Source of the DNA: Tubulanus polymorphus
Lineage: Eukaryota; Animalia; Nemertea
DNA length: 64,000 nt
Direction of reading: 5' to 3'
Assembly: GCF_964204645.1 (NCBI RefSeq)
Contig: NC_134026.1
Coordinates: 14,914,150-14,978,149, forward strand
A program made the translations under genes and the position numbers. Below are positions 22,179-64,000 of this stretch, in pieces. Numbering within the stretch: position 1 is the stretch's first letter; each line of letters begins with the position of its first letter. The notes under the pieces were generated by a model. That model searched no databases. It was not told the origin of the DNA and saw nothing but the letters and a program-made list of their open reading frames with translations.

Positions 22179-23945
22179 ATGGAGCTTATGTCACTTTGTA
22201 TGTGGATGCTGTTCCTACAGGTTTTACATAATCGACAACGTAGGCAGGCTTATCGACTAAGGACTTTGAAAAAACGGAAGAGACGTATTATTCAATTCAG
22301 AAGACGGCAACTGCAGCAACGACAAGAAGTTATTAACTTTTTCATGATGAAATTTGACCAAGCTGACCTAAGGAAAGGGCGAATTTGGAGTTTTCCTAAG
22401 AGTTCTGATCTGTGGGATAATATAATGGCCTATTGGACAGATGAACGTTGGTTAGAGAACTTTAGAATGACAAGAAATACATTTCAGGTAGGCCTTGCCT
22501 GAGGATCATAAAGATGTAAGAAAGCAATCTCAATCTCAATAGCTGAATACAGTGGCGACGGAACCGCCGCGGCAGTTTTTTCCCTAATAACCATTTTCTT
22601 TTAACATCGAATTTACTTTGGCCTCATCATAGACATATTTATTCCTTACAAATAAAAACAACTGTTCCAGATACTCGAAAAATGCTTCAAATTTTCTAAA
22701 TTTTCTTGGGGGAGGACCCCCAAACCTCCCTCATGGGCATTCGCACCTTCGGTGCTCGCTCGTCGGGTTAAGAGGCATTGTTTCTGATGAAGTATGTAAA
22801 TTTGTCTTTAGCACCCCCCGAAGTATATGTTTACACCCCCTCCCCCCAAAAAAGCGTACATACTATTTGGACACTCCCATACCTTGCTGTCAAAGTGACG
22901 CATAGGTGCAGAAAATTGCTCAAATATGAAGATAGATTTATTGCCTTATTTTTCAATATCACTAAAAGTAACTAATCCTTATATTTTACAGTATATCTGC
23001 CAGAGTCTGTCAGGAAAACTACAGAAGATGAATACCACTATGAGGGAGCCTTTATCAGTTGAAAAGCGAGTAGCTATAACTATCTGGAGACTGGCAACTG
23101 GTGCCGATTACCGAACAATTTGTTACATTTTCGGTGTAGGTCGGAGTACAGTGGGCGGTGTTGTTCTTGAAGTGACTGAAGCAATTGCAACCATTCTTGG
23201 TCATGAGTGGGTAAAAATCCCAACGGGTGATGACTTATTGGAAAACGTTCAAACGTTTGAAGGAGTTATGGGTTTTCCCCAGTGTTTTGGAGCTATCGAT
23301 GGTACCCATATACCAATAATCGCGCCAACTGATACTCCAAAAGATTATTATAATCGCAAGGGATATTTTAGTCTAAACGTGCAAGCTTTGGTTGACAGCA
23401 GTTACAGGTTCATTGATGTTGTTATCGGATGGCCAGGCAGTGTACATGATGCCAGAATCCTTGGTAACTGTACATTGTATGACAACGCAGAACGTTGCAC
23501 TCTTGTTCCGAATACAAAACGACGCATAAATGGCATTGATATTCCTCTAATGATCTTAGGTGACCCTGCTTATCCATTACTTCCATGGCTTATGAAGCCC
23601 TATTCAGATAACGGATTATTAACAAAATCTCAACATAACTTTAACTACCGTCTTAGTCGTGCTAGAATGGTTGTGGAAAATGCATTTGGCAGGCTAAAAG
23701 GCAGGTGGCGCATTCTCTCGAAACGTCTGGATAATAAACTTGAATATGTTCCGAATGTTATTTTGTCATGTTGTGTTCTTCACAACATCTGTGAAACCTA
23801 TAAAGAGTTATTCGACCAGCAATTGCAAGAAAATTTGGTGGAAATGCGTGAAGAGCCTGTGGCTAGAGTTTGCAATACAAATGTTGAAGAAGCTGGTGAT
23901 ATTCGTCGAGCTCTAGAAAATTATTTTTATTTCCGGGGTAATTAA
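22179..23945 (+). CDS. Harbinger (HARBI1-like) DDE transposase, 2 exons (22179-22487, 22992-23945), about 420 aa, apparently intact
   Basis: GT at 22488 and ttttacAG at 22991 give FRMTRNTFQ|YICQSL; motifs GAIDGTH, GWPGSVHDA, LGDPAYPL, RMVVENAFGRLKGRW, CCVLHN. Confidence 0.92.
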
Positions 23946-26262: not shown

Positions 26263-26277
26263 AATTGATTCATTTAA

Positions 26278-29002: not shown

Positions 29003-29683
29003 ATGGAAAGTAAAAAGCCACAAATCATAAATATTACAAATAACGCTGGTGTTGTTAATATATATCATAAGATATGTACTAAGTGTGAATTAGATAAACA
29101 ATCTTCTGAATATTATAAACAAAAGATTAACAAAGATGGTTTACGAAATATTTGTAAAACATGTTGGAAACAAAATAATGCACAATATCGAGAAAATAAC
29201 CCAGAATACATGAGAGAATGGAAAAAAGATAACCGCGAACATATCAATAATTACCAAAAAGTAAAATATAATTCAGATCCATTATTCAAATTAAAGCATA
29301 CTAACAGAACAAGTTTGAAGAGAGTTTTCAAAAATTTTATAAAATCTGATAGATCAATTGATTATTTAGGATGTTCTATAGAATTTTTTAAATCATGGAT
29401 AGAATATCAGTTCGATAATAACATGAAATTTGAGAATCATGGAGAATATTGGGAGTTAGATCATGTTATCCCATTACCATCAATTGAGGATGAATCTGAA
29501 ATAAAAAAAACATGTAATTGGGTGAATATTCAACCTTTATCGAAAATAGAAAGTAGAATTAAACCTGATAAAATTGATAATGAATTATATGATAATCAAA
29601 TAATTAAATCTGAAAGATTAATACAATTATGGAATAATGATCCAAATAATGACCAATACGTTGAGTCTTTAATAAGTAGTTAA
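29003..29683 (+). CDS. HNH-type endonuclease with N-terminal CxxC...CxxC (copy A)
   Basis: CTKC...CKTC; LGCSIEFFKSWIEYQF...ENHGEYWELDHVIP...NWVNIQPL, a type common in large DNA viruses. Confidence 0.72.
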   Translation: MESKKPQIINITNNAGVVNIYHKICTKCELDKQSSEYYKQKINKDGLRNICKTCWKQNNAQYRENNPEYMREWKKDNREHINNYQKVKYNSDPLFKLKHTNRTSLKRVFKNFIKSDRSIDYLGCSIEFFKSWIEYQFDNNMKFENHGEYWELDHVIPLPSIEDESEIKKTCNWVNIQPLSKIESRIKPDKIDNELYDNQIIKSERLIQLWNNDPNNDQYVESLISS

Positions 29684-30910: not shown

Positions 30911-32002
30911 ATGAAAAAAGAACAATATTTAAGAGAGTTATATTACAACCCAGAAAGTGAAGTATCATATTCTAACGTTTCGGAATTATGGGGTAAAATT
31001 AAATCTGATAAAGAAAATGGTAATATAAAATATAGTGAATTAAAATCATGGTTACAAAATCAACCAACATATCAAATCCACAAGAAAATGGATAAAACTT
31101 ATTTAACAAGAAAAGTTATGGTTTCATATATCGATCAACAATGGCAAGCAGATTTAATTGACATGAAGAACTTAGAAGAATACAACAAAGGATATTTCTG
31201 AATATTAAATGTTATAGACATATTCAGTAGATACGCATGGTCAATTCCAATCAAAAATTAAACTGGTATAGAAGTGACAAATGCTTTTAAATCAATATTT
31301 AAAGAAGCTATTCCAGATAAGATACAATTTGATGAAGGTAAGGAATTCTATAACAAACATTTTAAAAAACTATTATCTGATAACGATGTAGATTATTTTT
31401 CAACACACTCAGATAAAAAAGCATCTATTATAGAAAGATTTAATAAAACATTGAAAACTAGAATGTGGAAATATTTTACTGCTAATGAAACATATAATTA
31501 TATCGATATATTAGATGATTTAGTGAAAGGTTATAATAATTCTAAACATAGTTCTATAAATATGAAACCTATACAAGCTAGAAAAGAAGATAATTCAGAA
31601 ATAGTTTGGAATAATTTATATGGAGCATTTGTTACACATGATTTCGGTGAACCTAGATTTAAAATAGGACAACATGTTAGAATATCTAAATATAGAAAAA
31701 CATTTTATAACGGTTATACTCCAAATTTTACTGAAGAAATATTCAAGATTAAAAAGATAATATTAACTAAACCTTTTGTTTATAAATTAGAAGATATAAA
31801 AGATGAAGAAATATTAGGTTATTTCTATGAACAAGAATTATCACTTGTACCAAACCCAGATGAAATAGAAGACGAAATAGAAAAAGTATTGAAAACAAAA
31901 ACTCTTAAAGGAAAAAAGTATTCTTTGGTGAAATATAAAGGGTATGATGATAAATTTAATGAATGGATTTTATCTAGTAAAATTAAAAGAATGAATGAAT
32001 AA
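30911..32002 (+). pseudogene. Polinton RVE (DDE) integrase with C-terminal chromodomain, two premature stops (copy A)
   Basis: QQWQADLID, IDIFSRYAW, IQFDEGKEF, KASIIERFNKTLK, YNNSKHSSI, VKYKGYDDKFNEW. Confidence 0.92.
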
Positions 32003-32604
32003 AGATTTATTTATATTTGAACCGCATAATATGTTGGTTACTGGGGTAACAAACTGTGGTAAAACACATTTCATATTAAACTTGTTAGAAACTATTTATA
32101 AGAATCATTTTGATAATATAACATTATTCTGTCCTACTTATGAAATGAATAAAACATATAATAGGGATATAGTTAAGATAAAAAAGTTTATTTTATTAGA
32201 TACTAAAACAGTAAAAAAATTTAGATAATTGTATTAAAATAGCAATTGATATTTATAAAGGATCAAATGCATTATTCATTATAGATGATTGTGCTAATTT
32301 GCATGATTCAAAAGTTAGAGAAAGTGAGTTATGTTATTTAGCTTTCTCTGGGACACATTTCGGGATAACAACATGGGTTTTAAATCAAAAATATAATTCA
32401 ATTGTTAAAGACTTTAGGGAGAATATAAGATTTCTAGTTTTATTCTACAATAAAGATAGAAAATCTATGCAACAATCATTAGAAGAAAATCAAATTATAC
32501 CTACTGAATTACATGATGAATATATGAATAAATTGAAGAATCATAAAGGTTCAAAATTATTACTGAGACTACAATTTCCCTATGAATATAAATTTATAAA
32601 ATAA
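31995..32604 (+). pseudogene. FtsK/A32-like packaging ATPase, frameshifted (copy A)
   Basis: Walker A GVTNCGKT, Walker B FIIDDCA, SG(R/T)H...QKY...REN. Confidence 0.88.
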
Positions 32605-36704: not shown

Positions 36705-38157
36705 TTAAAATTTAAAATATAATATTCCTCCAATTACAATTCTTATACAAGTTATAGCTAATTTAGCATTTTCATGGGATTTATTGTCATCATTTAGTTT
36801 AATTATTTCATGTTGAATATTATCAGTTTCATTATTCCTGAAGATGACTATTAGGATATAGTCGAAACGTTGAAATAAACTACTATCTCGAAGTTTCATT
36901 TTCGGACTTTTTATTATCATTGTGGGATTCTCTCCTCATCGCGTCAACACGGATATAGTGTTCTACCAATCGTGATTATCAGTTTTAATATTTTCTGATG
37001 TATTGTAATCTTTTATTTTTGAATCATTATTTAATTTAATATTCTTAGATTTAGTTTCTGTTGATTGAATATGTTTTTTATTTTTTTCACCTTCCATTAA
37101 TTTTGGAGCAGAAATAATCTTTTTATTTATATCATTTAATCCAAATGAATTATTTATTGTTGCAGTCTTAATTAAATTATTATAACCCATCATTATTTCC
37201 CATCTTTAATACTAAATCATTAGAAATAATTAATAGATTAGGGCCTATACAATAATTTAATCTAATATGTGATTTATCTAAATAATTTTGATATCTTACA
37301 ATGTTTTCTGGAATCGATCTATTTTTATCATTATGAATAGAATCTTCAAATAAAACTTTGAATTGTTTCTGCGCATCAAATGAAGTGTTATCATTTCCAA
37401 CTATTGGTGATCTTGTTTCAACTTGCGCACCTAGAATACATATCAAATAAGTTCTAATAGATTGATTTATTCTTTGTATACCTGTTATCGTAAAACCTTC
37501 ACTATTTTCTAAAATGAAATTAATCCAACCATTATTATTATCAATTTTATAATTATGATAAGCTGAAATTCTATGTATATAATCAATTCTTTTTATTTCA
37601 TACTCTTCACCAATACCTTGCAATTTACCATGCGCTCTAAAATCGGAATTAATATTTATATTAAATTCATTACATATTTTAAAAAACTTAGATAGATTAA
37701 TATTATTATCCAATTCTTTAAAATATTTAGATCCGGGCAAAGGACATTCTAATTCATTTAATATTACTCTGATTTGAAAATATGTGTGAAATCTAAATAT
37801 TGTGTGAATCAATTTTAAATCAGAATACTTCAAATTTTTATCTAAGTTATTCAAATGATCATTCCAACTTATACCAGTTGTTGCACAATAAACAGCAAAA
37901 TTTAATTGGTTCTGCCAATATTTCATATTAGATTTTACTTTGTATATATGATATTCATCTCGAGTAAAAGTAACTTCATATGTATTAAATATATTTTCCA
38001 TTTTAGAAATAAAAAACTGTGATTCAGTAACATAAATTTCTAAATTAGTTAATGAATTTAAAACTAAATTTTTATATGTAATATTTTTTTTTAAATCTAT
38101 TGCAGGAATATTATATTTAATTGATTTATTATATTGGAAAGCTTTTGGAAACCCCAT
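36705..38157 (-). pseudogene. Conserved viral protein (YWQNQLNFAVYCATTG family) with C-terminal TM anchor (copy A)
   Basis: Homolog of 45508-46832; interrupted by a frameshift and a 145-bp insertion. Confidence 0.75.
36830..36974 (+). mobile_element. Solo Penelope-like pLTR with hammerhead-like motif, 11-bp TSD
   Basis: Absent from copy B; ATTATCAGTTT duplicated at 36819-36829 and 36975-36985; CTGAAGA T GACTAT taggat ATAGTC GAAA CGTTG followed by AATAAA. Confidence 0.8.
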
Positions 38158-38426: not shown

Positions 38427-38598
38427 TACTCGCGAAACTCATAAAAATGAAAAATAAATTCTCACGCTCGAATTTATTTTTCATTTTTATGAGTTTCACT
38501 CCTAATTCAAGTAGAAATTGTTATTATTTTCATGTTTTTCATTTTTACTCACCCGCCCATTCAACCTTTAACCTGAAAGCCTATTACCCCTATTACTC
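38427..38598. repeat. Partial terminal hairpin of copy B
   Basis: gaaactcataaaaatgaaaaataaattc-loop-gaatttatttttcatttttatgagtttc plus inner arm ending cctattacccctattactc. Confidence 0.85.
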
Positions 38599-38802
38599 TT
38601 AAAATAATCATATACATGAATAACATTTAAATTGACAGATTATTCAATATAAAAGTATATATTTACAACATTATTTCAATATTTATATTTGTATGAGTTA
38701 GATTTTTAAACATTAAAAGTGTTAGTAAAGTGTGATTGAAATAATTCATATATAAATCATTGAACTTCTAAAATCAATTCTAATAAAAAATTTAGTATTA
38801 AA

Positions 38803-41800
38803 ATGGAAGCAAATAAGTACTACTGCCCAACATGTAATATCAATATAGATAAATCCCAAAAAGAAAGACACAATAAAACTAAAACACATTTAGAGAATAA
38901 ATTGAAATTAGAATATGAAGATGGTATATTAGAAACTAAATTAGATGAATTAAAGAATGAAAAAGAAATATATAAATGTGATACATGTAATCAATCATTC
39001 AGTGATAAAAGATATTATAAAGAACATTTAAAATCTAAAAGTCATATTAGAAATAAGAATAATGATATTTTAGGTGAAGATTATTTTGATAAAGATAATG
39101 ATAAGAAACAGAAGACAATTAAAAGCATAAAAAATAAATTAAACAATAAAAGACCATACATGGAAGATGTAAGAAATTATATTAATTCATTAGATAATAA
39201 AAAAGATATAGAGATAACCGAAGCATTTAAAAGTGATATTGGCCCAGCAGCTATTGAGTTTAAATTTCATAAAGGAAAAACATTAGAAGAAAATAAAAAA
39301 CATTAAGAAAATATGAAAAATATTATAAAAATAATAACTAATGTTGAATATCCTAAAATTAGTATATCTTCTAAAGTAAAGTTTATAAAATCTGAAGATA
39401 AACCAATATATAATATAAATTCTCATTCACAACATATTATATCTAAACAACATATAGATGATAAATTAGATAAATGTTATAATGAAGTAAAAACTAAAAT
39501 AGAAGAGAAATATTTTGAAGGATCAGGTTTAATATTTGATGAAATAATATTTATGACTTTACATGTCTATAACACAAAATATAATGAGGAAACTAAATCG
39601 AAACCAATAGATGAAAATAATGTATCATATCATAAAGAACCAGATATTTAAGCATCGAGTTATATTAAACTACCATTTAAAACTAATGCTGTTATAAATG
39701 TACAAAATTTTGATGATAAATGTTTTTTATGGGCAATAATTAGTTGCTTACATGCTGCAACTGATAATATTTGTAGATTAACTCATTATAAACCATTTGA
39801 AAATAATTATAAGATGGATAATTATCCTGTTAGAATTAAAAATATTCCAAAAATAGAAAGAGATAATAATTTAAAAATAAATGTATTTGATTTAATCAAA
39901 TTGCCAAAAACAAAAGGTAACAATATAAAACATTATACATAAGAACCTTTATACCTTTAAGATTATGATTCAAATGATGTTATAGATATATTATAGTATG
40001 AGAATCATTATATGTGGATTAAACAAATCGATTTATTCTTTAGAACAGAAAGTGATCACCATAATAAAATATATCTATGTAGAAAATGTTTACATAAATT
40101 CAGTAATGAAAGTACATTATTAAATCATAAACAATTATGTGAAAATCATGATTATTGTAAATTAGTTTTACCAAATGAAAAGGATAAAATATTAGAATTC
40201 AAAAAATATGATTACAAAAATAAAGTACCATTTGTAATATATGGAGATTTTGAATCATTAAATAAAGAATTAACTGATCAAGATAGAAAAGAAATATATT
40301 ATAAAAGAAAGAAATTAAATTCTAATGAAAATGATATAATTGATTATTCAGATCCCCTTATAACAACTACTATTAAAAAGATTCATCAATCAGCTGCAGC
40401 TTTCGGATTATATATTAAATCTGATTATCCAGAACTAATAAAAAGTGAATATTATCATTATAGAAATTAAAATGTTATCAATCATTTTTGTGACTTATTA
40501 ATTGAATATGAAATAAGATTTAGTAAATTATTGAATACAAATATAGAAATTATAATGACAGAAGAAGATAAAGAAGCATTTGAGTTTGCAGATAAATGTT
40601 ATTATTGTGATAAGATATTTAATTATGAAGATAAAAAAGTAATAGACCACGATCATTTGAATGGAAAGTTTAGAGGTGCAGCGCATGAGAATTGTAATTT
40701 GCAAGCAAAGAAAATAAATTTTGTTCCAGTTATATTTCATAATCTATCAGGATATGATGCACATTTATTCATCAAACAGTTATGCCATAAAATAGAAGAA
40801 ATTAATAATGAAATAGAAAGATTAAATTCAAATAGATCAAAAGATAAAATACCAACTTATAAATTTAAAATGTTAGCTAGAACATCTGAGAATTATATAT
40901 CATTCCAATTTGGGTGTCTAAGATTTATAGATTCATATAGATTTTTAAACAGTTCATTAGATAACTTATCAAAATCATTAGTTGATGATGAATTAAAAAT
41001 ATTAAAACAACACTATCCAAATAATGATAATTTTAAATTAATGAGATATAAAGGCGCAATTCCATATTCATTTTATAAATCACATAATGATTTTAATATA
41101 ACTGAATTATTAAAAGAACAATTTTATGATGAATTAAAAAATGAATATGTTAAAGATGAAGTATATAATAGAACATTGAATATTTGGAATTATTTTGTAA
41201 TGAAAAATCATGGACAATTAGTAGATTTATATTTAAAATCAGATGTATTATTATTAACTGATATATTCGAAAGATTTAGAGATGTAAACCTAAAATATTT
41301 GAATGTTGATCCATGTCATTGTTATTCATCACCAGGATTAACTTGGGATTGTGGATTAAAATTTACAGATATAAAAATGGATTTGTTAACAAATATAGAT
41401 CAATAACTATTATTTGAAAAATCTATAAGAGGAGGAGTTTCAGGTGTATTAGGTGATAGACATTTCGATGTAAATGATAACCCTGGATATAAGTTATTAT
41501 ATATAGATGCAAATAATTTGTATGGATGGGTAATGATGGAACCACAACCTTATGGAGTATTTGAAATAAGTGAAGTTTTACAACATGAAAATAATGATAA
41601 ATTTGATTGGAAGAAAAGAATCCTAGATATTGCAGATGATTCAGATACTGGTTACTTCTTTGTTGTAGATTTAGAATATCCTGAACATATTAAATTTAAA
41701 ACTAGAAATCTAGCATACTGTCCAGAAAATAAAACTGTTACTCGTGAAGAATTATCAAATTATCAAAAAAGAATTAAACCCGAAAATCTTATTCATACAG

Positions 41801-42840
41801 AAAAGTTAATGGTAACTCAAGAAGATAAATATAATTATGTAGTACATTATAAAATGTTAAAGTTTTATTTGAATCAAGGAATGATTCTAAAAAAAGTACA
41901 TAGATATATTTCATTTAGTCAATCTAAGTGGTTAGAAAAATATATGGATTTTAACACCAAACAGAGAACTAAAGCTAAAACTGATTTCGAGAAAGATTTC
42001 TTCAAGTTAATGAATAATGCATTCTATGGTAAGACTTGTGAAAATATTAGAAATAGAAATGATATTGAGTTAGTTAGTAATGGCAAAAGGATAAGGCATT
42101 TACAAACATATCCTAGATTTATAGGTAACAGAATATTTGATGAAAATTTAGCTGCAGTTAAGATGAGAAGAACATCAATGAAATTTAATAAACCAATCTA
42201 TGTTGGCGCTTCAGTTTTAGAATTATCAAAATTACTAATGTATGAATTCTATTATAATGTATTACAACCACTTTTTGGAGAAAAACATATAGAAATATTA
42301 TATTTTGATACCGATTCTTACATATTAAAGATAAAAACTGATAACATAACAGATGATTTAAAAACATTAAAACATCATTTTGATTTCAGTAACTATCCTA
42401 AAGATCATGAATTGTTTAGCAATGATAATAAAAAAGTTCCCGGTAAATTCAAAGATGAATTAGGTGATGAAGAAATGATAGAGTTCATAGGTATTAGATC
42501 TAAAATGTATTCATATAAAACTAAAGAACATGAAGCTAAAAAGTTAAAAGGAATAACCAAAAGTGTAGTAGAAAAGAATATTCATTTCAAAGATTATATC
42601 AATTGTATATTCAAAGAAGAAGTTAGAAAACATAAGATGAGATGTTTAAGATCTGAAGATCATGAAATATTTATTGAAGAAATTGAAAAGATTAGTCTAA
42701 ACCCATTTGATGATAAAAGATATATTTTAGATGATGGAATTCATACAGTTGCTTATGGTTGTAATTTAGATGAATACTTAAAATTTAAAAGAGAAGAAAC
42801 AAAAGAGAACGAGATAATGAAAAGAATTCTAACGTGTTAA
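38803..42840 (+). pseudogene. polB: Protein-primed family B DNA polymerase (copy B), full length, several stops, intein-free
   Basis: N-terminal C2H2 fingers; NVQNFDDKCFLWAI; ExoI YGDFES; EndoVII-like CYYC..DHDHLNGKFRGAAHENCN; FHNLSGYD; RFIDS; YLKSDV; YIDANNLYG; KLMNNAFYGK; YFDTDS at 42301-42318. Confidence 0.95.
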
Positions 42841-45507: not shown

Positions 45508-46832
45508 ATGGCAGATAGTTTTCCAAAAGCTTTCCAATATAATAAATCAATTAAATATAATATTCCAGCAATAGATTTTAATAAAGATATTACATATAGA
45601 AATGAAGTTTTAAATTCATTAATTGATTTATATATTTATGTTACTGAAAGTAATAATTTTCATGTAAAGATGGAAAATATATTTCATGTGTATACAATTA
45701 ATTTCAAAAATTTAAATGAGGCAAAACAATGGTTATTAAAATCTAATATGAAGTATTGGCAGAACCAATTAAATTTTGCTGTTTATTGTGCAACAACAGG
45801 ATGTGGAATTAGTTGGAATGATCATTTAAACAAACCAAGTTTACCATTGATGTTATCACTTTTTAGATTTCATACATATGTTCAAATAAAATTAATATTA
45901 GATGAATTAGAATGTCCTTTACCAGGTTCAAAATATTTTAAAGAATTGAATAATAATATTAATTTTTCTAAGTTTTATAAAATATGTAATGAATTTAATA
46001 TTAATTCAAATAAAGATTTTAGAGCAAAAATTGGAACAATGGGTGGATTAGGAATATTATATACTAAAGAATTTGGAAAAATAATGACAAATTCAGATAT
46101 AAGAACACTAAATTGGAATGAATTACCAAAATATTATAATAATATACAACAACAAAATAATAATGGTTGGGTTAATTTCATTTTAGAAAATAGTGAATGT
46201 TTTACTAAAGCTGGAATACAAAGAATAAATCAATCTATTAGAACTTATTTGATATGTATTTTAGGTGCGCAAGTTGAAACAAGATCCCCAATAATTGGAA
46301 ATGATAACACTTCATTCGATGCGCAGAAACAATTCAAAGTTTTATTTGAAGATTCTATTCATAATGATAAAAATAGATCGATTCCAGAAAACATTGTAAG
46401 ATATCAAAATTATTTAGATAAATCACATATTAGATTAAATTATTGTATAGGCCCTAATCTATTTATTATTTCTAATGATTTAGTATTAAAGATGGGAAAT
46501 ATAATTGGTTACAATAATCTAATCAAAACTGCAACAATAAATAATTCATTTGGATTAAATGATATAAATAAAAAGATTATTACTGCTCCAAAATTAATGG
46601 AAGGTGAAAAAAATAAAAAACATATTCAATCAACTGAAACTAAAACTAATAATATTAAATTAAATAATGATTCTAAAATAAAAGATTTCAATACATCACC
46701 AAGATATAAAAACTGATAATATTCAACATGATATAATTAAACTAAATGATGATAATAAATCCCATGAAAATACTAAATTAGCTTTAACTTGTATAGGAAT
46801 TGTAATCGGAGGAATATTATATTTTAAAATTA
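45508..46832 (+). pseudogene. YWQNQLNFAVYCATTGCGIS-family protein (copy B); 402 aa open, then a frameshift before the C-terminal TM
   Basis: ORF 45508-46716 plus out-of-frame LALTCIGIVIGGILYFKI; homolog in copy A. Confidence 0.75.
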
Positions 46833-48310: not shown

Positions 48311-49558
48311 ATGAGTGGGAGTTATATCAATCCTTCTAAGAATCATAGAATATCTAATGCTATTAAAGCAGAAAGATCACATCATATAATTACTCATAAC
48401 CCTTCTGATATTAATCCCGATGAAACTTTATATGTTAGAATTCCTCGATTAACACAAAATACTTTTTATGTTCCAAATAGTATTTATTTATCAGCCGATA
48501 TAAAAGTAATCGGTAATAATAATAATTATGTTGTTGATAATGTTGGAAGATATTTGATTAAAAAATTAACAATAAAGATTGGTCCAGAAACAGTTTTCTC
48601 ATTAGATGATTATAATTTATTTATGCATTATAAAGATTTATGGTTAACTAAAGAAAACAGAAATAATATGATATTTCAAGGAATCCAATCAGAAAACCAA
48701 AATAAATTAAGATCAGAAGCATAATAATGCAATATTAACTAATGCTATAGATAAAGTGATAAAAAGTATATATGGAAGCAAATATGAAATTCCATTAGAC
48801 TTTGAATTGATAAATAATAATGCGCCTTTATATAAATATGCGATTCAAGAAGATGTTATATTCGAAATAACATTTGCTCCGGTAAATGAAATTGTAATAT
48901 CTAGCGTTAATAAAGATATGAGTTTAAATTATCGAATATATGTTTAGAATATGATACAGTAACTGATGAAAATATTTCAAGTATAATTCAAACTCAATAC
49001 AATCAAGGATTTTCATTATTATATGATTATATTGATAAATTTAAAACTGTAACTATTAATGCAAATGATGAAATTATTAATGAGAATATTAACTTCCCAA
49101 GGAGATCTATTAAAGGTATATTAATATTTTTTACCATTGCAACATATTCTAATGGCGCAATAAATGTTGATAATTATTATAATCCTGAAATAACAAAAGT
49201 AGAAATAACTATCGAAGGAATAGCAAATAAAATATTTTGTCAAGGAATGAGAATGATAGATCAATGGCCAGAAATTAGAAAACATTTTATGAATGAAAAA
49301 GTAAAATCATCTGAAAATTGTAATATTAATCAAATTGATTATTATACCGGTAATAAATATGCATTATGGTTAGATTTTAGAACAACAGAGGATAATTCAT
49401 TACATGGTTCTGGAAAAAAATTACAAAACACTAAAGATGGAATACAATTATTCATGACAAAGAAAAAAGGAAGCCTAAATTTCAAAATGCATATTTATAT
49501 TATATCTGACGCACAATTAAATATTGTAAATTCTCAATTAAATAGCGTTATGTATTAA
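48311..49558 (+). pseudogene. Probable major capsid protein (copy B), frameshifted
   Basis: Colinear and highly similar to 33966-35217. Confidence 0.68.
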
Positions 49559-50791: not shown

Positions 50792-51718
50792 TTATTTTAT
50801 AAATTTATATTCATAGGGAAATTGTAATCTCAGTAATAATTTTGAACCTTTATTATTCTTTAATTTATTCATATATTCATCATGTAATTCAGTAGGTATA
50901 ATTTGATTTTCTTCCAATGATTGTTGCATAGATTTTTTATCTTTGTTATAAAATAAAACTAGAAATCTTATATTCTCCCTAAAGTCTTTAACAATTGAAT
51001 TATATTTTTGATTTAAAACCCATGTTGTTATCCCAAAATGTCTCCCAGAGAAAGCTAGATAACATAACTCACTTTCTCTAACTTTTGAATCATGTAAATT
51101 TGCGCAATCATCTACAATGAATAATGTATTTGATCCTTTATAAGTATCAATTGCTATTTTTATACAATTATCTAAATTTTCTTTTACTGTTTTAGGATCT
51201 AATATAATAAACTTTTTTATTTTAACTATATCTCTATTATATGTTTTATTCATTTCATAAGTAGGACAGAATAATATTATATTATCAAAATGATTCTTAT
51301 AAATAGTTTCTAACAAATCTAATATGAAATGTGTTTTACCACAATTGGTGTTTTTGATTGGAATTGACCATGCGTATCTACTGAATATGTCTACAACATT
51401 TAATATCCAGAAATATCCTTTGTTGTATTCTTCTAAGTTCTTCATGTCAATTAAATCTGTTTGCCATTGTTGATCGATATATGAAACCATAACCTTTCTT
51501 GTTAAATAATTTTTATCCATTTTCTTGTGGATTTGATACGTTGGTTGATTTTGTAACCATAATCTTAGTTCACTATATTTTATATCACCATGTGGGTGCC
51601 ATACGGCACCATTTTCTTTATCAGATTTAATTTCATCCCATAATTCTGAAACGCTAGAATATGATACTTCAATTTCTGGGTTATAATATAAATCTCTTAA
51701 ATATTGTTCTTTTTTCAT
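50792..51718 (-). pseudogene. In-frame deletion fusion of the integrase N-terminus to the packaging ATPase (copy B)
   Basis: ...RYAWSIPIKN|TNCGKTHF...; junction near 51350 removes about 0.8 kb relative to copy A, including two integrase catalytic residues and the first Gly of Walker A. Confidence 0.9.
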
Positions 51719-51840
51719 CTTATTTTAATCCATTAATAATATTTAAAATTTAGATTTAGTTTCAATGATTTTATGATTTGACTTATTTTCTGGTATAATA
51801 GGTTTATAATCATCGGAATCATTATCATCAGATTTATACT

Positions 51841-52012
51841 AGTAATAGGGGAAATAGGTTTTCAGATCAAAATGAACGCTCGAATTTATTTTTCATTTTT
51901 TATGAGTTTCACTCCTAATTAAAGTAGAAATTATTATTATTTTCATATTTTTCATTTTTTACTCACTCGCCGTTTCAACCTTTAATCTGAAAGCCTATTT
52001 CCCCTATTACTC
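51841..52012. repeat. Terminal hairpin of copy C (outer arm partly deleted)
   Basis: (act)agtaataggggaaataggttttcagat ... atctgaaagcctatttcccctattactc. Confidence 0.85.
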
Positions 52013-52280
52013 TTAAAATATTTATATACATGAAAAAAAAATATATGAATAACATATAAATTGATAGATTATTCAATATAAAGTGTTAGTAAAAAAGTAA
52101 CGAGTAATTAACGAGCTCTTATAGATAGATAAATAGATATTTTTTAAACATATTTCAATATTTATATTTGTATTTGTAAGATTTTTAAACATTAAAAGTG
52201 TTAGTATAGTGTGATTGAAATAATTCATATTTAAATCATTGAACTTCTAAAATCAATTTTAATAAAAATTTAGTATTAAA

Positions 52281-55200
52281 ATGGAAACAAATAAGTACTA
52301 CTGTTAAACATGTAAAATCAATATAAATAAATCAATCCCAAAAATAATAAGACATAATAAAACTAAAACACATTTAGAGAATAAATTGAAATTAGAATAT
52401 GAAGATGATATATTAGAAACTAAATTAGATGAATTAAAGAATGAAAAAGAAACATACAAATGTGATGCGTGTAATCAATCATTCAGTGATAAAAGATATT
52501 ATAATGAACATTTAAAATCTAAAAGTCATATTAGAAATAAGAATAATGATATTTTAGGTGAAGATTATTTTGATGAAGATAATGATAAGAAACAGAAGAC
52601 AATTAAAAGAATAAAAAATAAATTAAACAATAAAAGACCATACATGGAAGATGTAAGAAATTATATTAATTCATTAGATAATAATAAAGATATAGAAATA
52701 ACCGAAGCATTTAAAAGTGATATTGGTCCAGCAGCAATTGAGTTTAAATTTCATAAAGGAAAAACATTAGAAGAAAATAAAAAACATTTAGAAAATATGA
52801 AAAATATTATAAAAATAATAACTAATGTTGAATATCCTAAAATTAGTATATCTTCTAAAGTAAAGTTTATAAAATCTGAAGATAAACCAATATATAATAG
52901 AAATTCTCATTCACAACATATTATATCTAAACAACATATAGATGATAAATTAGATAAATGTTATAATGAAGTAAAAACTAAAATAGAAGAGAAATATTTT
53001 GAAGGATCAGGTTTAATATTTGATGAAATAATATTTATGACTTTACATGTCTATAACACAAAATATAATGAGGTAACTAAATCGAAACCAATAGATGAAA
53101 ATAATGTATCATATCATAAAGAACCAGATATTTAAGCATCGAGTTATATTAAACTACCATTTAAAACTAATGCTGTTATAAATGTACACAATTTTGATGA
53201 TAAATGTTTTTTATGGGCAATAATTAGTTGCTTACATGCTGCAACTGATAATATTTGTAGATTAACTCATTATAAACCATTTGAAAATAATTATAAGATA
53301 GATAATTATCCTGTTAGAATTAAAAATATTCCAAAAATAGAAAGAGATAATAATTTAAAAATAAATGTATTTGATTTAATCAAATTGCCAAAAACAAAAG
53401 GTAACAATATAAGACATTATACATTAGAACCTTTATACCTTTAAGATTATGATTCAAATGATGTTATAGATATATTATAGTATGAGAATCATTATATGTG
53501 GATTAAACAAATCGATTTATTCTTTAGAACAGAAAGTGATCACCATAATAAAATATATCTTTGTAGAAAATGTTTACATAAATTCAGTAATGAAAGTACA
53601 TTATTAAATCATAAACAATTATGTGAAAATCATGATTATTGTAAATTAGTTTTACCAAATGAAAAGGATAAAATATTAGAATTCAAAAAAATATGATTTC
53701 AAAAATAAAGTACCATTTGTAATATATGGAGATTTTGAATCATTAAATAAAGAATTAACTGATCAAGATAGAAAAGAAATATATCATAAAAGAAAGAAAT
53801 TAAATTCTAATGAAAATGATATAATTGATTATTCAGATCCCCTAATAACAACTACTATTAAAAAGATTCATCAATCAGCTGCAGCTTTCGGATTATATAT
53901 TAAATCTGATTATCCAGAACTAGTTAAAAGTGAATATTATCATTATAGAAATTAAAATGTTATCAATCATTTTTGTGACTTATTAATTGAATATGAAATA
54001 AGATTTAGTAAATTATTGAATAAAAATATAGAAATTATTATGACAGAAGAAGATAAAGAAGCATTTGAGTTTGCAGATAAATGTTATTATTGTGAAAAGA
54101 TATTTAATTATAAAGATAAAAAAGTAAGAGACCATGATCATTTGAATGGAAAGTTTAGAGGTGCAGCGCATGAGAATTGTAATTTGCAAGCAAAGAAAAT
54201 AAATTTTGTTCCAGTTATATTTCATAATCTATCAGGATATGATGCACATTTATTCATCAAACAGTTATGCCATAAAATAGAAGAAATTAATAATGAAATA
54301 GAAAGATTAAATTCAAATAGATCAAAAGATAAAATACCAACTTGTAAATTTAAAATGTTAGCTAGAACATCTGAGAATTATATATCATTCCAATTTGGGT
54401 GTCTAAGATTTATAGATTCATATAGATTTTTAAACAGTTCATTAGATAACTTATCAAAATCATTAGTTGATGATGAATTAAAAATATTAAAACAACACTA
54501 TCCAAATAATGATAATTTTAAATTAATGAGATATAAAGGCGCAATTCCATATTCATTTTATAAATCACATAATGATTTTAATATAACTGAATTATTAAAA
54601 GAACAATTTTATGATGAATTAAAAAATGAATATGTTAAAGATGAAGTATATAATAGAACATTGAATATTTGGAATCATTTTGTAATGAAAAATCATGGAC
54701 AATTAGTAGATTTATATTTAAAACCAGATGTATTATTATTAACCGATATATTCGAAAGATTTAGAGATGTAAACCTAAAATATTTTAATGTTGATCCATG
54801 TCATTGTTATTCATCACCAGGATTAATTTGGGATTGTGGATTAAAATTTACAGATATAAAAATGGATTTGTTAACAAATATAGATCAATTACTATTATTT
54901 GAAAAATCTATAAGAGGAGGAGTTTCAGGTGTATTAGGTGATAGACATTTCAATGTAAATGATAACCCTGGATATAAGTTATTATATATAGATGCAAATA
55001 ATTTGTATGGTTGGGCAATGATGGAACCACAACCTTATGGAGTATTTGAAATAAGTGAAGTTTTACAACATGAAAATAATGATAAATTTGATTGGAAGAA
55101 AAGAATCCTAGATATTGCAGATGATTCAGATACTGGTTACTTCTTCGTTGAAGATTTAGAATATCCTGAAAACATTAAATTTAAATCTAGAAATCTAGCA

Positions 55201-55778
55201 TACTGTCCCGAACATAAAACTGTTACTCATGAAGAACTATCAAATTATCAAAAAAAGAATTAAACCCGATAATCATATTCATACAGAAAAGTTAATGGAA
55301 ACTCAGGAAGATAAATATAATTATGTAGTACATTATAGAATGTTGAAGTTTTATCTAAAACAAGGAATGATCCTAAAAAAAGTACATAGATATATTTCAT
55401 TTAGTCAATCTAAGTGGTTAGAAAAATATATAGATTTTAACACCAAACAGAGAACTGAAGCTAAAACTGATTTCGAGAAAGATTTTTTCAAACTAATGAA
55501 TAATGCATTCTATGGAAAAACTTGTGAAAAATATTAGAAATAGAAATGATATTGAGTTAGTTAGTAATGGTAAAAGGATAAGGCATTTACAATCATACCC
55601 TAAATTTATTGGCAACAGAATATTTGATGAAAATTTAGCTGCAGTTAAAATGAGAAGAACATCTATGAAATTTAATAAACCAATTAATGTTGCAGCATCA
55701 GTTTTAGAATTATCAAAGTTATTAATGTATGAATTCTATTATAATGTATTACAACCTCATTTTGGAGAAAAACATATA
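52281..55778 (+). pseudogene. polB: pPolB copy C, truncated at ...FGEKHI just before motif C
   Basis: Colinear with 38803-42291; joined at about 55779 to a minus-strand ATPase fragment. Confidence 0.93.
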
Positions 55779-55779
55779 C

Positions 55780-56007
55780 ATTTTCTTTTACTGTTTTTGG
55801 ATCTAATATAATAAACTTTTTTATCTTAACTATATCTCTATTATATGTTTTATTCATTTCATAAGTGGGGCAGAATAATTTTATATTATCAAAATGATAC
55901 TTATAAATAGTTTCTAACAAGTCTAATATGAAATGTGTTTTACCACAGTTGGTTACTCCAGTTACTAACATATTATGCGGTTCAAATATAAATAAATCTC
56001 TATTCAT
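55780..56007 (-). pseudogene. Packaging ATPase 5' half (truncated)
   Basis: MNRDLFIFEPHNMLVTGVTNCGKT...DPKTVKEN, then junction. Confidence 0.88.
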
Positions 56008-56663
56008 TTATTCTTTTAATTTTACTAGATAAAATCCATTCATTTATCATCATATCCTTTATATTTCACCAAAGAATACTTTTTTCCTTTAAGAGTTTTT
56101 GTTTTCAATACTTTTTCTATTTTGTATTCTATTTCATCTGGGTTTGGCACAAGTGATAATTCTTGTTCATAGAAATAACCTAATATTTCTTCATATTTTA
56201 GATCTTCTAATTTATAAACAAAAGGTTTAGTTAATATTATCTTTTTAATCTTGAATATTTCTTCGGTAAAATTAGGGGTATAACCTTTATAAAATGTTTT
56301 TCTATATTTAGATATTCTTACGGTTCAAATATAAATAAATCTCTTTTCATTTATTCTTTTAATTTTACTAGATAAAATCCATTCATTTATCATCATATCC
56401 TTTATATTTCACCAAAGATTACTTTTTTCCTTTAAGAGTTTTTGTTTTCAATACTTTTTCTATTTTGTATTCTATTTCATCTGGGTTTGGTACAAGTGAT
56501 AATTCTTGTTCATAGAAATAACCTAATATTTCTTCATATTTTAGATCTTCTAATTTATAAACAAAAGGTTTAGTTAATATTATCTTTTTAATCTTGAATA
56601 TTTCTTCGGTAAAATTAGGGGTATAACCTTTATAAAATGTTTTTCTATATTTAGATATTCTTA
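55978..56663. repeat. Tandem duplication (~343 bp x2) of the integrase 3' end and ATPase start
   Basis: cggttcaaatataaataaatctc...gatattctta occurs at 55978 and again at 56321. Confidence 0.88.
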
Positions 56664-57423
56664 CATGTTGCCTAATTTTAAATTTAGGTTCTCCGAAATC
56701 ATGTGTAACAAACGCTCCATATAAATAATTCCAAACTATTTCTGAATTATCTTCTTTTCTAGCTTGTATTGGTTTCATATTTATAGAACTATGTTTAGAA
56801 TTATTATAACCTTTCACTAAATCATCTAACACATCGATATATTTATACGTTTCATTAGCAGTAAAATATTTCCACATTCTAGTTTTCAATGTTTTATTAA
56901 ATCTTTCTATAATAGATGCTTTTTTATCTGAATGTGTTGAAAAATAATCTACATCGTTATCAGATAATAGTTTTTTAAAATGTTTGTTATAAAATTCCTT
57001 ACCTTCATCAAATTGTATCTTATCTGGAATAGCTTCTTTAAATATTGATTTAAAAGCATTTGTCACTTCTATACCAGTTTTATTTTTGATTGGAATTGAC
57101 CATGCGTATCTACTGAATATGTCTATAACATTTAATAACCAGAAATATCCTTTGTTGTGTTCTTCTAAGTTATTCATGTCAATTAAATCTGCTTGCCATT
57201 GTTGATCGATATATGAAACCATAACTTTTCTTGTTAAATAAGTTTTATCCATTTTCTTGTGGATTTGATATGTTGGTTGATTTTGTAACCATAATCTTAG
57301 TTCACTATATTTTATATTTTCATTATCAGATTTAATTGTATTCCATAATTCTGAAACGTTTGAATATGATGCTTCACTTTCTGGGTTGTAATATAAATCT
57401 CTTAAATATTCTTCTTTTTTCAT
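56350..57423 (-). pseudogene. RVE integrase with chromodomain; 334 aa open with complete DDE core, stop inside the chromodomain
   Basis: WQADLID, FDEGKEF and IERFNKTLK all intact. Confidence 0.92.
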
Positions 57424-57429
57424 CTTATT

Positions 57430-58726: not shown

Positions 58727-59476
58727 TCATTTCGGATCCTCGATAATAAATTCCTCAACGTATTGTTCATTTTTAGGATCATTGTTCCATAATTCAATAA
58801 ATGTCTTTGCTTTATCTAATTTATCCAAATATAACTGAAAATCTAGTTTATTAGATTTGATTTTATTTTCTTTCTTTTCAAGAGGTCTTAGATTCTTCCA
58901 ATTCCATATTAACTTCTGATTGTATTCATCATTCATGTTAAATTTCGAAACTGGTAAAACATTGTCTATTTGAAAATATTCGCCATAATTATTTATATTC
59001 ATTTCATCATTAAACTGATATATTATCCATGATTTTAAGAATTTATCTGTACAACCTAACAAATTAGATAACGTGTATGAGTGTTTGTCTTTACTGAATA
59101 ATTGTGATAATCTATTACCTAGGTATTGTCTCATTTTGAAATTAAAATCTGTTCGGCGCCTCTTTTTTTGATAATTATTATAATATTCTGGATTATTTTC
59201 TCTCCATTGTTTTTTCGTTACTTTACATTTTTCTAGATTATTTAGATAATATTGTTTGTCTTTTTCTTTACATTTTTCAATATTATCTACATAATATTGT
59301 TTACTATATAATTTACTACAAGTTTTACAAATATTTCTTTTACCATCTTTTTAATTGTTATCTTTATTAAATTCTGCTAATAATTTATTTATTTTACACT
59401 TATAACATGTCTTCTGATATATATTTATAACACCATTACTGTTTATATTTATAGTTTGTGATTGTGCGCTTTCCAT
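58727..59476 (-). pseudogene. HNH-type endonuclease, frameshifted
   Basis: MESAQSQTININ...CIKC...CKTC...LGCTDKFLKSWIIYQF...NYGEYFQIDNVLP...NWKNLRPL. Confidence 0.75.
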
Positions 59477-60381: not shown

Positions 60382-61050
60382 CTAACCACTGATTAAAACC
60401 TCAGAATGCGGTTGATTCTGTGAAATACTATTCCATAATTCAACAAATGTCTTTGCTTTATCCAGTTGATCTAAATATAACTGTAAATCTAGTTTGTTAG
60501 ATTTAATTATGTTTTCCTTCTTTTCTAAAGGTCTTAGATTCTTCCAATTCCAAATAAGTTTTTTATTGTATTCATCATTCATGTTAAATTTAGAAATCGG
60601 CAACACATGATCAATATGGTAATAATCCCCATAATTATCTATATTCATTTTATCGTCGAATTGATATATTATCCATGATTTGAGAAATTCATCTGTACAA
60701 CCCAACAAATTAGATAGTGTTTCTGAATGTATTTCTTTGTTGAATAATTGTGTTAATCTAGATCTTAAACATTGTTTCAATCTAAAATTAAGATCTGTTT
60801 TATATCTTTCTCTCATATATTCTGCCATATAATAATTATAATGTTCTATATTATCTTCTCGATATTGTTTGGTATATAGTTTAGTGCAAGTTTTACAGCA
60901 ATATTGAAAACCATCTTTGCTAATCTTACGCTTACTAAATTCTGTTAAAGCTAATTTATCATATTCACATTTAGAACACTTCTTGTAGTATATGTTTATG
61001 ACACCAGTGTTATTTGTAATATTGATAGTTTGTGGTTGTTCTGATTCCAT
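60382..61050 (-). CDS. HNH-type endonuclease, intact 222 aa
   Basis: CSKC...CKTC; LGCTDEFLKSWIIYQF...NYGDYYHIDHVLP...NWKNLRPL...ENIIKSNK. Confidence 0.78.
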   Translation of the reverse strand: MESEQPQTINITNNTGVINIYYKKCSKCEYDKLALTEFSKRKISKDGFQYCCKTCTKLYTKQYREDNIEHYNYYMAEYMRERYKTDLNFRLKQCLRSRLTQLFNKEIHSETLSNLLGCTDEFLKSWIIYQFDDKMNIDNYGDYYHIDHVLPISKFNMNDEYNKKLIWNWKNLRPLEKKENIIKSNKLDLQLYLDQLDKAKTFVELWNSISQNQPHSEVLISG

Positions 61051-61282
61051 TTATTATACATATTTTTTTACTAAATTGATTTTAGAAGTTCAATGATTTA
61101 TATCATGTATTATTTCAATCACACTTTACTAACACTTTTAATATTTAAAAATCTAACTCATACAAATATAAATATTGAAATAATGTTGTAAATATATCTA
61201 TATATCTATTCTATAAGAGCTTACACTTTTATATTGAATAATCTATCAATTTAAATGTTATTCATTGATATGAATATTTTAA

Positions 61283-61549
61283 GAGTAATAGGAGTAATAG
61301 GCTTTCAGGTTAAAGGTTGAACGGGCGGGTGAGTAAAAATGAAAAACATGAAAATAATAACAATTTCTACTTGAATTAGGAGTGAAACTCATAAAAATGA
61401 AAAATAAATTCGAGCGTGTGAGAATTTATTTTTCATTTTTATGAGTTTCGCGAGTAATTCAAGTAGTTTTGTTATTATTTTCATGTTTTTCATTTTTACG
61501 AGCTCGACCGTTCGACCTTTGGCCTGAAAGCCTATTACCCCTATTACTC
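61283..61549. repeat. Full ~267-bp imperfect palindrome (terminal hairpin)
   Basis: gagtaatagg.gtaataggctttcagg ... cctgaaagcctattacccctattactc; centre aaattc-gagcgtgtga-gaattt. Confidence 0.92.
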
Positions 61550-61994
61550 GTATCCTTACATCTGGGGTTATTCCTAAAATTTTAGCTAAAGGTTTTTTAA
61601 CTAGAAATTGATGTTGATCTTCATTACCTAATTTTATTCTTATTTTATCGGAGCTATCACTTTTAATCAGTCTTAATCCAAATCCAGCAGATGCACCCAT
61701 TTTCAACCTAGCTCTTCTATTAATTTCCTGCGCTAATGTATCTAAATTATATAATCCTGGTTTAAGATAAAGATGAAACCATTTACTTTTATTTCTATCA
61801 TGAATTAAAAAGACTCTATGTTCAATAGTTGTATATGATACATTGTAAAAAGAATTACATAAACTTATATAAACTAATTTTAAATCAACAGAATTCTTAA
61901 ATTCTCTATCTAATTGTACTAGTAAATTATGTAATTTATAATTTGTAAGTCTTCTTGAATCAATAAATATTCTGTATTCTTTTAATTCTACCAT
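61550..61994 (-). pseudogene. Probable minor capsid protein, 3'-truncated by the hairpin
   Basis: Homolog of 43241; similarity ends at ...KILGITPDVRI, after which the ORF reads into the hairpin. Confidence 0.75.
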
Positions 61995-62392: not shown

Positions 62393-64000
62393 TTAACACG
62401 TTATAGTCCTATTCATTATTTCCTTTTCTTTCTCTTCTTCTCTTTTAAATTTTAGATATTCATCTAAATTACAACCATATGCAACTGTATGAATTCCATC
62501 ATCTAAAATATATCTTTTATCGCCAAATGGGTTTAGACTTACCTTTTCAATTTCTTCAATAAACATCTCGTGGTACTCAGATCTTAAACATCTCATCTTA
62601 TGTTTTCTAACTTCTTCATTGAATATACAATTGATGTAATCTTTGAAATAAATATTCTTTTCTACTACACTTTTGGTTATTCCTTTTAACTTTTTAGATT
62701 CATGTTCTTTCTATCATTTCTTCACCACCTAATTCATCCTTAAACTTCCCGGGTCGCTTTTTATTATCATTGCTAAACAATTCATAGTCTTTAGGATAGT
62801 TACTGAAATCAAAATGATGTTTTAATGTTTTTAAATCATCAGTTATGTTATTAGTTTTTATCTTTAATATGTAACTGTCAGTATTTTTTATGATTAATGG
62901 AAATCCACAATTAAATGTACCATCTTCAGTTGTTAAATCATAAACATATTCTGTAGGATTGGATATTTCAAATAAATCTCTAACTTCTTCTGTTAGTTCA
63001 TCTTCTATATGCGTTAATTGAAATACATTTAGTTTATCTTTTCTAATATTAACTAACATATTAAATCCTAATGAATTGCATAATGTATTTAATCCTGATA
63101 TAGCAACTTTTCCTTTTTGTGTCAAAGATATAGTTTTCTGTTTTTTTGAACCATCTGCAGCATAAAATCCAATGAAGAACCATTTTCTTAAATCATATTT
63201 TGCATTTATTACATAATCTGGAACTACCTTTCTTTAGTTGAAGTATTACTTTTAACTATTGCATGAATATAGAATTCGTAATTATATTTTATAGCAAAAT
63301 CTTTAGGGTTATTTACAAGTATTCTATAAACTGCTGTTGATTTCATATAATCCACGATTCTAAATGTTTTATGTGAATAAACTTCTTCACAGTCTTTCTT
63401 AATTCTTTCTAATAATTTCAAATCTTGATTGCATAAACACCAACAATATTTATAACCACTAACATAATTATACACACCTGCTGAACCATCTCCCATAAAA
63501 AATCCTTTGATAAAATATTCTTTTTCTTCTAATGTTTCGGGTTCTATATTATAAATATTATCAATTATTTCATCAAATGACATATGATTCATTCTTGGGT
63601 AAAATCTTTTATGTAATAATTCATCTCCAATTTTTATATCAGTTGGTTTTATTTCATCACCATTTTATTTAATTAAACTATGATCTTCAGTAACATCAAC
63701 AAATCCTAATTTAGTTCTAACTCTATAGATTTTCTTATTCGCTTTATGCCTAATTATATTCTTTAATTTCACCCATCCATTTTTTGTCCAAACATCCAAT
63801 AATGCATTTATTTCTATTAATTCTTTTTCACCATACGAAATATAAAGTTCATTTTGTTTTGGAATTATTTCTGAAATTCTTCTAATTAACATTTTATTAT
63901 TATATTTTAAAAATATTGGGGTGTCAGCTGTAACAGAATCAAAGTATAGAATTTCTATATGTTTTTCTCCAAAATGAGGTTGTAATACATTATAATAGAA
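62393..64000 (-). pseudogene. polB: pPolB C-terminal part with intein (runs off the window end)
   Basis: FYYNVLQPHFGEKHIEILYFD-[intein]-TDSYILKIK...GKFKDELGG...NPFGDKRYILDDG; small deletion near 62705. Confidence 0.93.
62883..63937 (-). mobile_element. Intein with LAGLIDADG homing endonuclease at the pPolB YFD|TDS site (~352 aa; one stop, one frameshift)
   Basis: Block A SVTADTPIF; block B VDVTEDHSL; block C FIKGFFMGDGS; block E FFIGFYAADGS; block F EYVYDLTTEDGTF; block G LIIKN followed by +1 Thr; precisely absent from copy B. Confidence 0.93.

Follow-up and report, generated by a model that had tools for sequence, protein, structure and literature searches.

A Pol-c-type intein in the protein-primed DNA polymerase of Polinton copies from a probable animal genome

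The Polinton cluster and the interrupted polymerase

The window, that is, the whole stretch of 64,000 nucleotides that was analysed, consists of two parts. The left part carries a Harbinger element, a satellite and remnants of further transposons. The remainder, which begins at about 29 kb, is made up of rearranged Polinton copies with a protein-primed DNA polymerase B (pPolB), an rve integrase, a packaging ATPase and a capsid-like gene. The features are the following (a slash in a motif marks the insertion point).

22899..23945, plus strand: Harbinger transposase, a host marker, with a Myb gene at 28025-28504
31262-32002: further integrase copy, with chromodomain
32215-32604: further packaging ATPase piece
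34-35 kb, minus strand: second capsid gene copy
38803..42840, plus strand: pPolB copy B, intein-free (PF03175, PF02945, tblastn with the relative P0003; zinc fingers, endonuclease VII domain)
48311..49558, plus strand: major capsid protein gene, in pieces (PF16903 Capsid_N, E 0.0011, 19 bits, below the cut-off of 24)
50792..51724, minus strand: packaging ATPase, deletion-fused to an integrase start (PF04665 36.3 bits, cut-off 22.8; PF00665 weak)
52281..55778, plus strand: pPolB copy C, ending 18 nt short of the intein site (PF03175 40.9 bits, cut-off 25.8)
56419..57429, minus strand: retroviral-type integrase (PF00665 38.5 bits, cut-off 32.6)
62474..62882, minus strand: C-extein of pPolB copy A, starting TDS, with a frame change and a short deletion near 62709
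62883..63937, minus strand: intein with LAGLIDADG homing endonuclease at the Pol-c site YFD/TDS, with one stop and one frameshift
62883..62945, minus strand: its C-terminal splicing region, recognised by motifs (block F VYDLTT, block G ending IIKN, penultimate Lys), +1 Thr next
63150..63170, minus strand: LAGLIDADG motif 2, GFYAADG, catalytic Asp present
63485..63505, minus strand: LAGLIDADG motif 1, GFFMGDG, catalytic Asp present
63665..63937, minus strand: Hint-N splicing region with Ser1, block A and block B TEDH (TIGR01445 intein_Nterm 35.9 bits, cut-off 24.5)
63938..64000, minus strand: N-extein of copy A, ending YFD; 63 nt lie in the window and the remainder beyond its end

Of the genes by which a Polinton/Maverick element is recognised, protein-primed PolB, rve integrase and packaging ATPase were found with profile scores above cut-off. 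The Pfam domain scan covered 43 of the 47 long reading frames of the window, and among these 43 no adenain protease was matched; the rearranged copies may lack it. At least four such copies, 84-95% alike and in direct and inverted orientation, lie between 28.9 and 64.0 kb, and the junction at 61280-61552 is hairpin-like. Occurrences of a terminal-type repeat lie at 38460-38659, 51876-52015 and 61222-61552; intact element ends or a 6-bp target duplication were not resolved in the window. The cluster also contains a 402-residue reading frame (45508-46716, with a copy at 37180-38157) without Pfam or Atlas match.

The insert in copy A has a length of 1,055 nt (63937..62883, minus strand) and splits motif C of the polymerase precisely between YFD and TDS. 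In the minus-strand translation, the polymerase reads in from the window end as FYYNVLQPHFGEKHIEILYFD, reaching the junction with HIEILYFD, and continues behind the insert as TDSYILKIK. The insert begins with SVTADTPI, contains TEDH (63691-63680), GFFMGDG (63505-63485), GFYAADG (63170-63150) and VYDLTT (62945-62928), and ends with GFPLIIKN (62906-62883), which is followed by Thr. The motif set of a class-1 intein is thus complete: Ser1, TEDH, the block F Asp, a terminal Asn and the +1 Thr. The penultimate residue is Lys in place of His, which is usual there though not obligatory. Two lesions are present, an in-frame TAA at 63665-63667 (residue 91) and a frame change near 63227-63233, so that the endonuclease reading frame, open in the relatives, is not open here (stop plus frameshift near 63230). 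The window copy is a decayed passenger which, as it reads, would be capable of neither splicing nor cutting. An earlier note on this DNA had described the insert in these terms, with its exact length and position, its motifs and its two lesions, and all of them were found again.

None of the copies A, B and C has an unbroken polymerase; their identity to P0003 is 57-64%. Copy B, which has stops at 40468-40470 and 41404-41406, reads ILYFDTDSYILK at the site. The earlier note had taken its uninterrupted YFDTDS (42301-42318) for an empty allele in the same locus. The uninterrupted reading is correct; however, copy B is a separate paralogous element, about 20 kb from copy A, in opposite orientation and about 86% identical downstream. 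Around the site (42298-42321 against 62871-62882 and 63938-63949), 6 of 24 nt differ between the two copies, all synonymously, against 16 of 204 nt beyond it (Fisher p 0.017, a single post-hoc test). The last 45 nt of copy C equal the copy A flank exactly and differ from copy B at two positions. Its break at 55734-55783 joins integrase/ATPase-side sequence; this single event may be what a cut close to the site left behind, or the breakpoint may have arisen by chance.

The insert, its relatives and their descent

Beside the TIGR01445 match to the N-terminal piece, the C-terminal piece was matched by PF14528 LAGLIDADG_3 (E 5e-4) and PF05204 Hom_end (E 8e-4), both just below cut-off. Pfam by itself missed the N-terminal pieces, and the C-terminal model TIGR01443 matched neither the window intein nor the relatives scanned. 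A profile built from 201 non-pPolB inteins of RNA-primed polymerases gave 224.5 and 114.8 bits for the two window pieces, while the top score among 1,000 shuffles was 11.7 bits. PF14528 exceeds its cut-off in all five intact relatives, PF14890 scores 37.7 bits on P0101 (cut-off 35.8), and PF14890/PF14528 match six of the seven rows of the pPolB intein alignment (A1). Motifs A, B, C, E, F and G are intact in all seven of these inteins at pairwise identities of 40-77%, as are the N-terminal Ser/Cys, TxxH, the block F Asp, the C-terminal Asn and the +1 Ser/Thr/Cys. The penultimate residue is Lys in the window intein and P0006, Ser in P0003 and His in P0101, L147, P0111 and P0112; Lys is common at this position among the viral PolB intein relatives.

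The AlphaFold model of the P0003 intein, computed from the seven-row alignment (pLDDT 76.8, pTM 0.80), resembles TliVMA, PhoVMA, PI-PkoII and PI-PfuI over both domains in the structure search, and PI-SceI and the I-DmoI fold are matched as well. Profile search also retrieves PI-PkoII and the Neq Pol and Aes123 PolB1 inteins. PI-PkoII and the Neq Pol split intein, which we take to lie at the same allele site as the window intein, share its Hint and LAGLIDADG architecture. PI-PkoII (PDB 2cw7; best PDB sequence match E 1.4e-10) differs in its length of 537 residues, its cellular archaeal host and a structural identity of only 14%.

The insert was confirmed as a Pol-c-type class-1 intein with a LAGLIDADG endonuclease, and splicing of the intact form is predicted. 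The pol-c site has been described as YGD/TDS for the Mimivirus PolB intein (PMC549080, consulted in part). That this site is shared with Mimivirus-type PolB had been claimed before and holds here, with insertion before the T of DTDS and the nearest likeness to same-site inteins. A spliceosomal or group I intron was considered and ruled out by the intact relatives, which encode an in-frame Hint protein in the insert. A Hedgehog-type or bacterial intein-like Hint domain was ruled out by the presence of both exteins, of Asn followed by Thr and of an endonuclease inside.

Searches of 5.8 billion proteins were considered through the best 96 and the best 120 of 1,302 matches. At least five clusters contain an intact pPolB with an in-frame, open intein at the same site (P0003, P0006, P0101, P0111 and P0112), and at least four contain truncated pPolB-intein proteins (P0004, P0009, P0011 and P0015); neither an NCBI or UniRef source nor an informative name is listed for any of them. 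L147 came from the metagenome scan, as the one pPolB locus among 42 with the shared GFPL..N end, the other 41 being of RNA-primed type. When 1.84 billion representatives were searched by profile, the best 150 matches contained only one further pPolB-like intein fragment, P0315. The intact relatives at this site span two very distant pPolB classes (PF03175 62 bits for P0003, 52 for P0101 and 111 for P0006). Upstream of the site the hosts read YFD, YMD, YLD, SSD or ASD, the D-T-D-S core being common.

The other close matches, among those listed, are inteins of RNA-primed PolB or topoisomerase II only. In IMG/VR, all 15 loci checked with the shared C-terminal motif are of RNA-primed type and 13 of them are labelled giant-virus MAGs; the remaining unclassified loci reach at most 43% identity over long matches. 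Phage records gave two weak partial matches only. Among the topoisomerase II proteins (P0007, P0035, P0039, P0040, P0042 and others) the related inteins occupy D/TDG sites, and this is a second host gene with a D/TD junction.

It is important to consider whether the insert could be an assembly chimera or a chance look-alike. It lies at the extreme window end within a rearranged repeat cluster, and no contig spanned a junction at the 31-letter threshold. Against this, the same insert stands at the same site in independent intact proteins, reads of the same species skip exactly 62883-63937, the G+C content of insert and polymerase is equal (0.246 and 0.243) and shuffled sequences score below 12 bits. 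The independent intact relatives refute this explanation, and its probability is negligible.

The comparisons support giant-virus-type RNA-primed PolB inteins as the nearest outside relatives of the pPolB inteins. The nucleocytoviral Pol-c inteins (Mimivirus, PMC549080, seen in part; HaV01, phycodnavirus, pandoravirus) share the D/TDS site, the Ser start, the Asn end and the +1 Thr. They are likewise of about 350 residues with a LAGLIDADG domain, and the best marine giant-virus-type, RNA-primed PolB inteins are 40-45% identical to those of pPolB. The first BFVD matches of the P0003 model are phycodnavirus, pandoravirus, marseillevirus and megavirus PolB inteins. The pPolB inteins differ from these viral ones in their host protein, a protein-primed polymerase that belongs to a Polinton, an integrating element, and of the site no more than the D-T-D-S core is in common. 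In addition, the pPolB inteins form a clade of their own and have many paralogous targets in one nuclear genome.

This clade of seven pPolB inteins has a support of 100/100 in IQ-TREE (LG+C20, 50-row subset, bootstrap not fully settled) and of 99 in FastTree with 218 rows. The branch nesting it among viral-type Pol-c inteins has a support of 81/94. All comparison inteins were collected by likeness to the pPolB inteins, and the sample is therefore biased. The earlier note had derived the intein from an RNA-primed viral PolB; the kinship stands, and as to the direction, an AU test did not reject a position of the pPolB inteins beside the outgroup (p-AU 0.497). Transfer from a giant virus to a Polinton appears likely, because the viral inteins are far more numerous and diverse and not because of the root.

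The inteins could instead be as old as both polymerase lineages, or have moved in the reverse direction, or have come from an unsampled donor. The same AU result allows the pPolB inteins to lie outside the PolB inteins, and the stem to their clade is long (0.5). However, RNA-primed viral inteins dominate at this site (149 of 209 non-redundant inteins, beside the 41 of 42 metagenome loci), and the identity of the inteins far exceeds the similarity between pPolB and PolB. Also, most described Polinton pPolBs are without an intein, as far as its absence from the main texts of PMC8502044 and PMC10748475 indicates. We consider such other origins improbable and keep to the giant-virus source as the likely one.

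Among the six hosts of the same class, intein identity (40-77%) tracks extein identity (40-80%), and between the window and P0003 both values are 63%. This tracking suggests long residence under selection. The extein of P0006 is only 15-22% alike to the other class, while its intein is 43-49% alike and groups with those of the window and P0003 (99/95). This points to a jump between pPolB classes, which the AU test does not make significant (p 0.074). The data show what appears to be an old lineage of pPolB inteins, widespread and diverging in step with the host polymerases, and the single transfer into one genome that had been supposed before gives way to this description. The lineage would have begun when an intein was acquired once, long ago, from a nucleocytoviral PolB by way of the shared D/TDS motif; it would then have diverged for a long time together with one pPolB class and have jumped at least once to the other.

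Occupied and empty copies

Copy numbers were taken from the whole-genome read depth of the same species (run X6, 12% of it read); the summed contig depths of X1 and X2 were not used as such. The mean depth is 242 over the intein, 543 over the adjacent polymerase flanks and 6.4 for single-copy sequence (six low-copy bins). These depths correspond to about 85 pPolB copies, of which about 38 (45%) are occupied and about 47 empty. The estimate is rough, since the likeness thresholds differed (85 and 92), copies that have diverged escape the count and the baseline may be specific to one haplotype. The coexistence of occupied and empty copies, claimed before for the window, is supported by these depths. 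The exact interval of 1,055 nt (62883-63937) is skipped by 139 reads; 85 further reads also lack it but show a variant of the site, and the reads include at least three variants of the empty site. The stop of the window is not shared by 232 of 244 reads, nor its frameshift by 118 of 154, and both lesions are therefore taken to be private to the window copy; short reads do not show the openness of a whole copy.

The P0101 cluster contains contigs of up to 1 Mb with both intact occupied and intact empty copies. The 15 members listed (P0101 and P0207-P0220) of its 136 comprise seven occupied copies, six empty copies and two fragments which end short of the site. Of the 16 residues around the site, 7 differ from those of P0101 in each of the six empty copies, while the other six occupied copies show no difference at these 16 residues. 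Elsewhere, five of the six empty copies differ at 10-23 of 434 positions (2-5%; P0215 was left out of this background comparison because of an indel), giving Fisher p values of 2e-5 to 3e-7, which overstate independence because the rows are related. The empty sites fall into three haplotypes, YTD/CDSM, YFD/TDAM and YGD/TDAM, while P0101 reads YMD/TDSF. This site-local divergence may reflect escape of the target or co-conversion from the donor, since both fit the pattern.

These observations allow us to propose the following mechanism. The full polymerase precursor would be made and the intein would splice by the class-1 path, with an acyl shift at Ser1, attack by the +1 Thr and cyclisation of Asn, rejoining YFD to TDS; without splicing the polymerase would lack its active-site motif. 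The freed endonuclease would then cut intein-free sites in other copies, and repair of the double-strand break from an occupied copy would fill them, either during element replication or between integrated copies. Changes at the sites of the persisting empty copies would be likely to blunt cutting.

The intein could, however, be real and yet not home in this host, the occupied and empty subfamilies each having been amplified by transposition, with the intein carried along passively and any homing long past, in free viral ancestors. The parallel intein and extein identities across lineages are those that vertical descent predicts, and the occupied P0101-family copies are 96-99% alike in both intein and extein. 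The C-exteins of occupied and empty copies in this family differ by 6-11%, as separate subfamilies would, and the endonuclease of the window copy is broken. Other observations speak against this explanation. The N-exteins of the same occupied and empty copies differ by just 0.3-3%, which points to recombination at the site. Both catalytic Asp residues of the endonuclease are retained in all seven lineages, and retention of these residues needs recurrent homing, according to the standard argument from the homing cycle. Finally, the inteins of P0101 and L147 (71% identity) are closer than their exteins (61%). On balance, transposition of a passive intein appears unlikely, and homing of intact copies is the preferred reading.

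Host and precedent

The host is probably an animal, an assignment based on the relatives of the flanking Harbinger transposase. Among the best 120 matches to this transposase all seven that carry a species name are animals, 51-58% identical to it: two sponges, two sea cucumbers, a sea urchin, an amphioxus and a fish. The animal host named in the earlier note is thus the probable one. The 6.9-kb Harbinger element itself (21945-28870, transposase and Myb, about three copies by depth) sits in repeated sequence and is skipped by 60 reads. The left part also contains a 154-bp satellite at 4447-8840 and a broken single-copy transposon-like gene at 10339-14557 with a weak DUF6589 match.

A protist, a fungus or a symbiont as the host would make the case similar to the inteins of viral polymerases in algal and protist genomes. 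Such inteins are described in the part of PMC10710043 that was available, where the viral-like DNA polymerases that carry them lie on scaffolds from the nuclei of Klebsormidium, Tetrabaena and a labyrinthulomycete. Polintons occur in protists as well, no intron-bearing host gene was identified in the window, and the transposase is not close to its named relatives. On the other hand, these named relatives are all animals. The same organism carries the intein and the host flank, a contig piece of 3,282 nt with two differences, and the single-copy depth of 6.4-fold implies a genome of roughly 300 Mb. The gene set is also that of the animal adintoviruses, as far as PMC8502044 was consulted. A non-animal host seems quite improbable, and an animal host is likely.

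The adintoviruses of PMC8502044 (again as partly consulted) are alike in pPolB, rve integrase, packaging ATPase and capsid-like gene, and their divergent Beta class matches PF03175 weakly, as P0003 and P0101 do in comparison with P0006. They differ in that the main text mentions no intein, and in that no adenain protease was detected in the window. The cases of PMC10710043, to the extent of the text at hand, are similar in that an intein entered a eukaryotic nucleus within an endogenous viral polymerase; their hosts are algae and protists with a giant-virus context, while here a Polinton pPolB in tens of copies, likely in an animal, is concerned.

In the text available of a review, metazoan genomes are said to have no inteins (PMC8529194). 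The hosts named in a survey of inteins in eukaryotes are, in the part seen, only fungi, algae, some protists and large DNA viruses, among them Iridoviridae (PMC5784728). The available text of the coral polintovirus study PMC11131425 contains no occurrence of the word intein, and the portions consulted of PMC12220804, PMC5718144, PMC3671162, PMC9939771, PMC4104785 and PMC13768754 contain nothing relevant. The earlier note knew of no described case, and within the open literature as partly accessible we likewise came across no intein of the Hint type, either in a pPolB or in the nuclear genome of an animal; supplements, subscription journals, InBase and Repbase lie outside this scope, and an earlier mention in a table or database is possible. 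The element itself is of a canonical kind; what is new is the type of host gene and, probably, the kingdom.

Taken together, and as far as sequence comparison can tell, the locus holds a Pol-c intein in the pPolB of a likely animal Polinton, of which intact versions are predicted to splice and likely to home, with a likely giant-virus origin. We regard this joint reading as quite probable. A wider proposal, which we put forward tentatively and which falls short of being probable, is that working homing inteins exist in animals. According to this proposal, an old lineage derived from giant viruses would reside in the Polinton polymerases of several marine invertebrate lineages, would jump between polymerase classes and convert empty copies in the nucleus, and would be held at partial occupancy by cut-resistant sites, including changes of the catalytic motif.

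The finding points to a route for inteins into animal genomes, inside an integrating virus-like element present in tens of copies. At the molecular level it is also evidence that DNA was exchanged between Polintons and giant viruses in a cell common to both, over the divide between protein-primed and RNA-primed polymerases. Where one genome carries such a family, with many paralogues both occupied and empty, homing and the escape of target sites become measurable in an animal, and natural, mesophilic inteins from a eukaryotic host are added to those at hand for protein-splicing work.

The endonuclease domains of Polinton pPolBs have been suggested to stem from intein invasions (PMC11161782, in the part consulted), and a concrete Hint-bearing case is now available for this suggestion. 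For the pPolB2 of Polintons, inserted nuclease domains of the HNH and VSR types have been reported (PMC10748475, seen in part); the words intein, Hint and LAGLIDADG are absent from the main text of that paper. These inserts, as described there, are similar in being homing-type endonucleases in a Polinton pPolB, but they are bare nuclease domains at other positions, while here a full Hint domain splits the catalytic motif. In the window, the related cysteine-rich reading frames 28979-29683, 58727-59350 and 60382-61050, without Pfam match, carry a D-H-V-x-P motif and look HNH-like by eye. P0006, with the same intein in a pPolB of the other, strong-PF03175 class, has in addition a stretch that resembles a VSR-type nuclease by eye.
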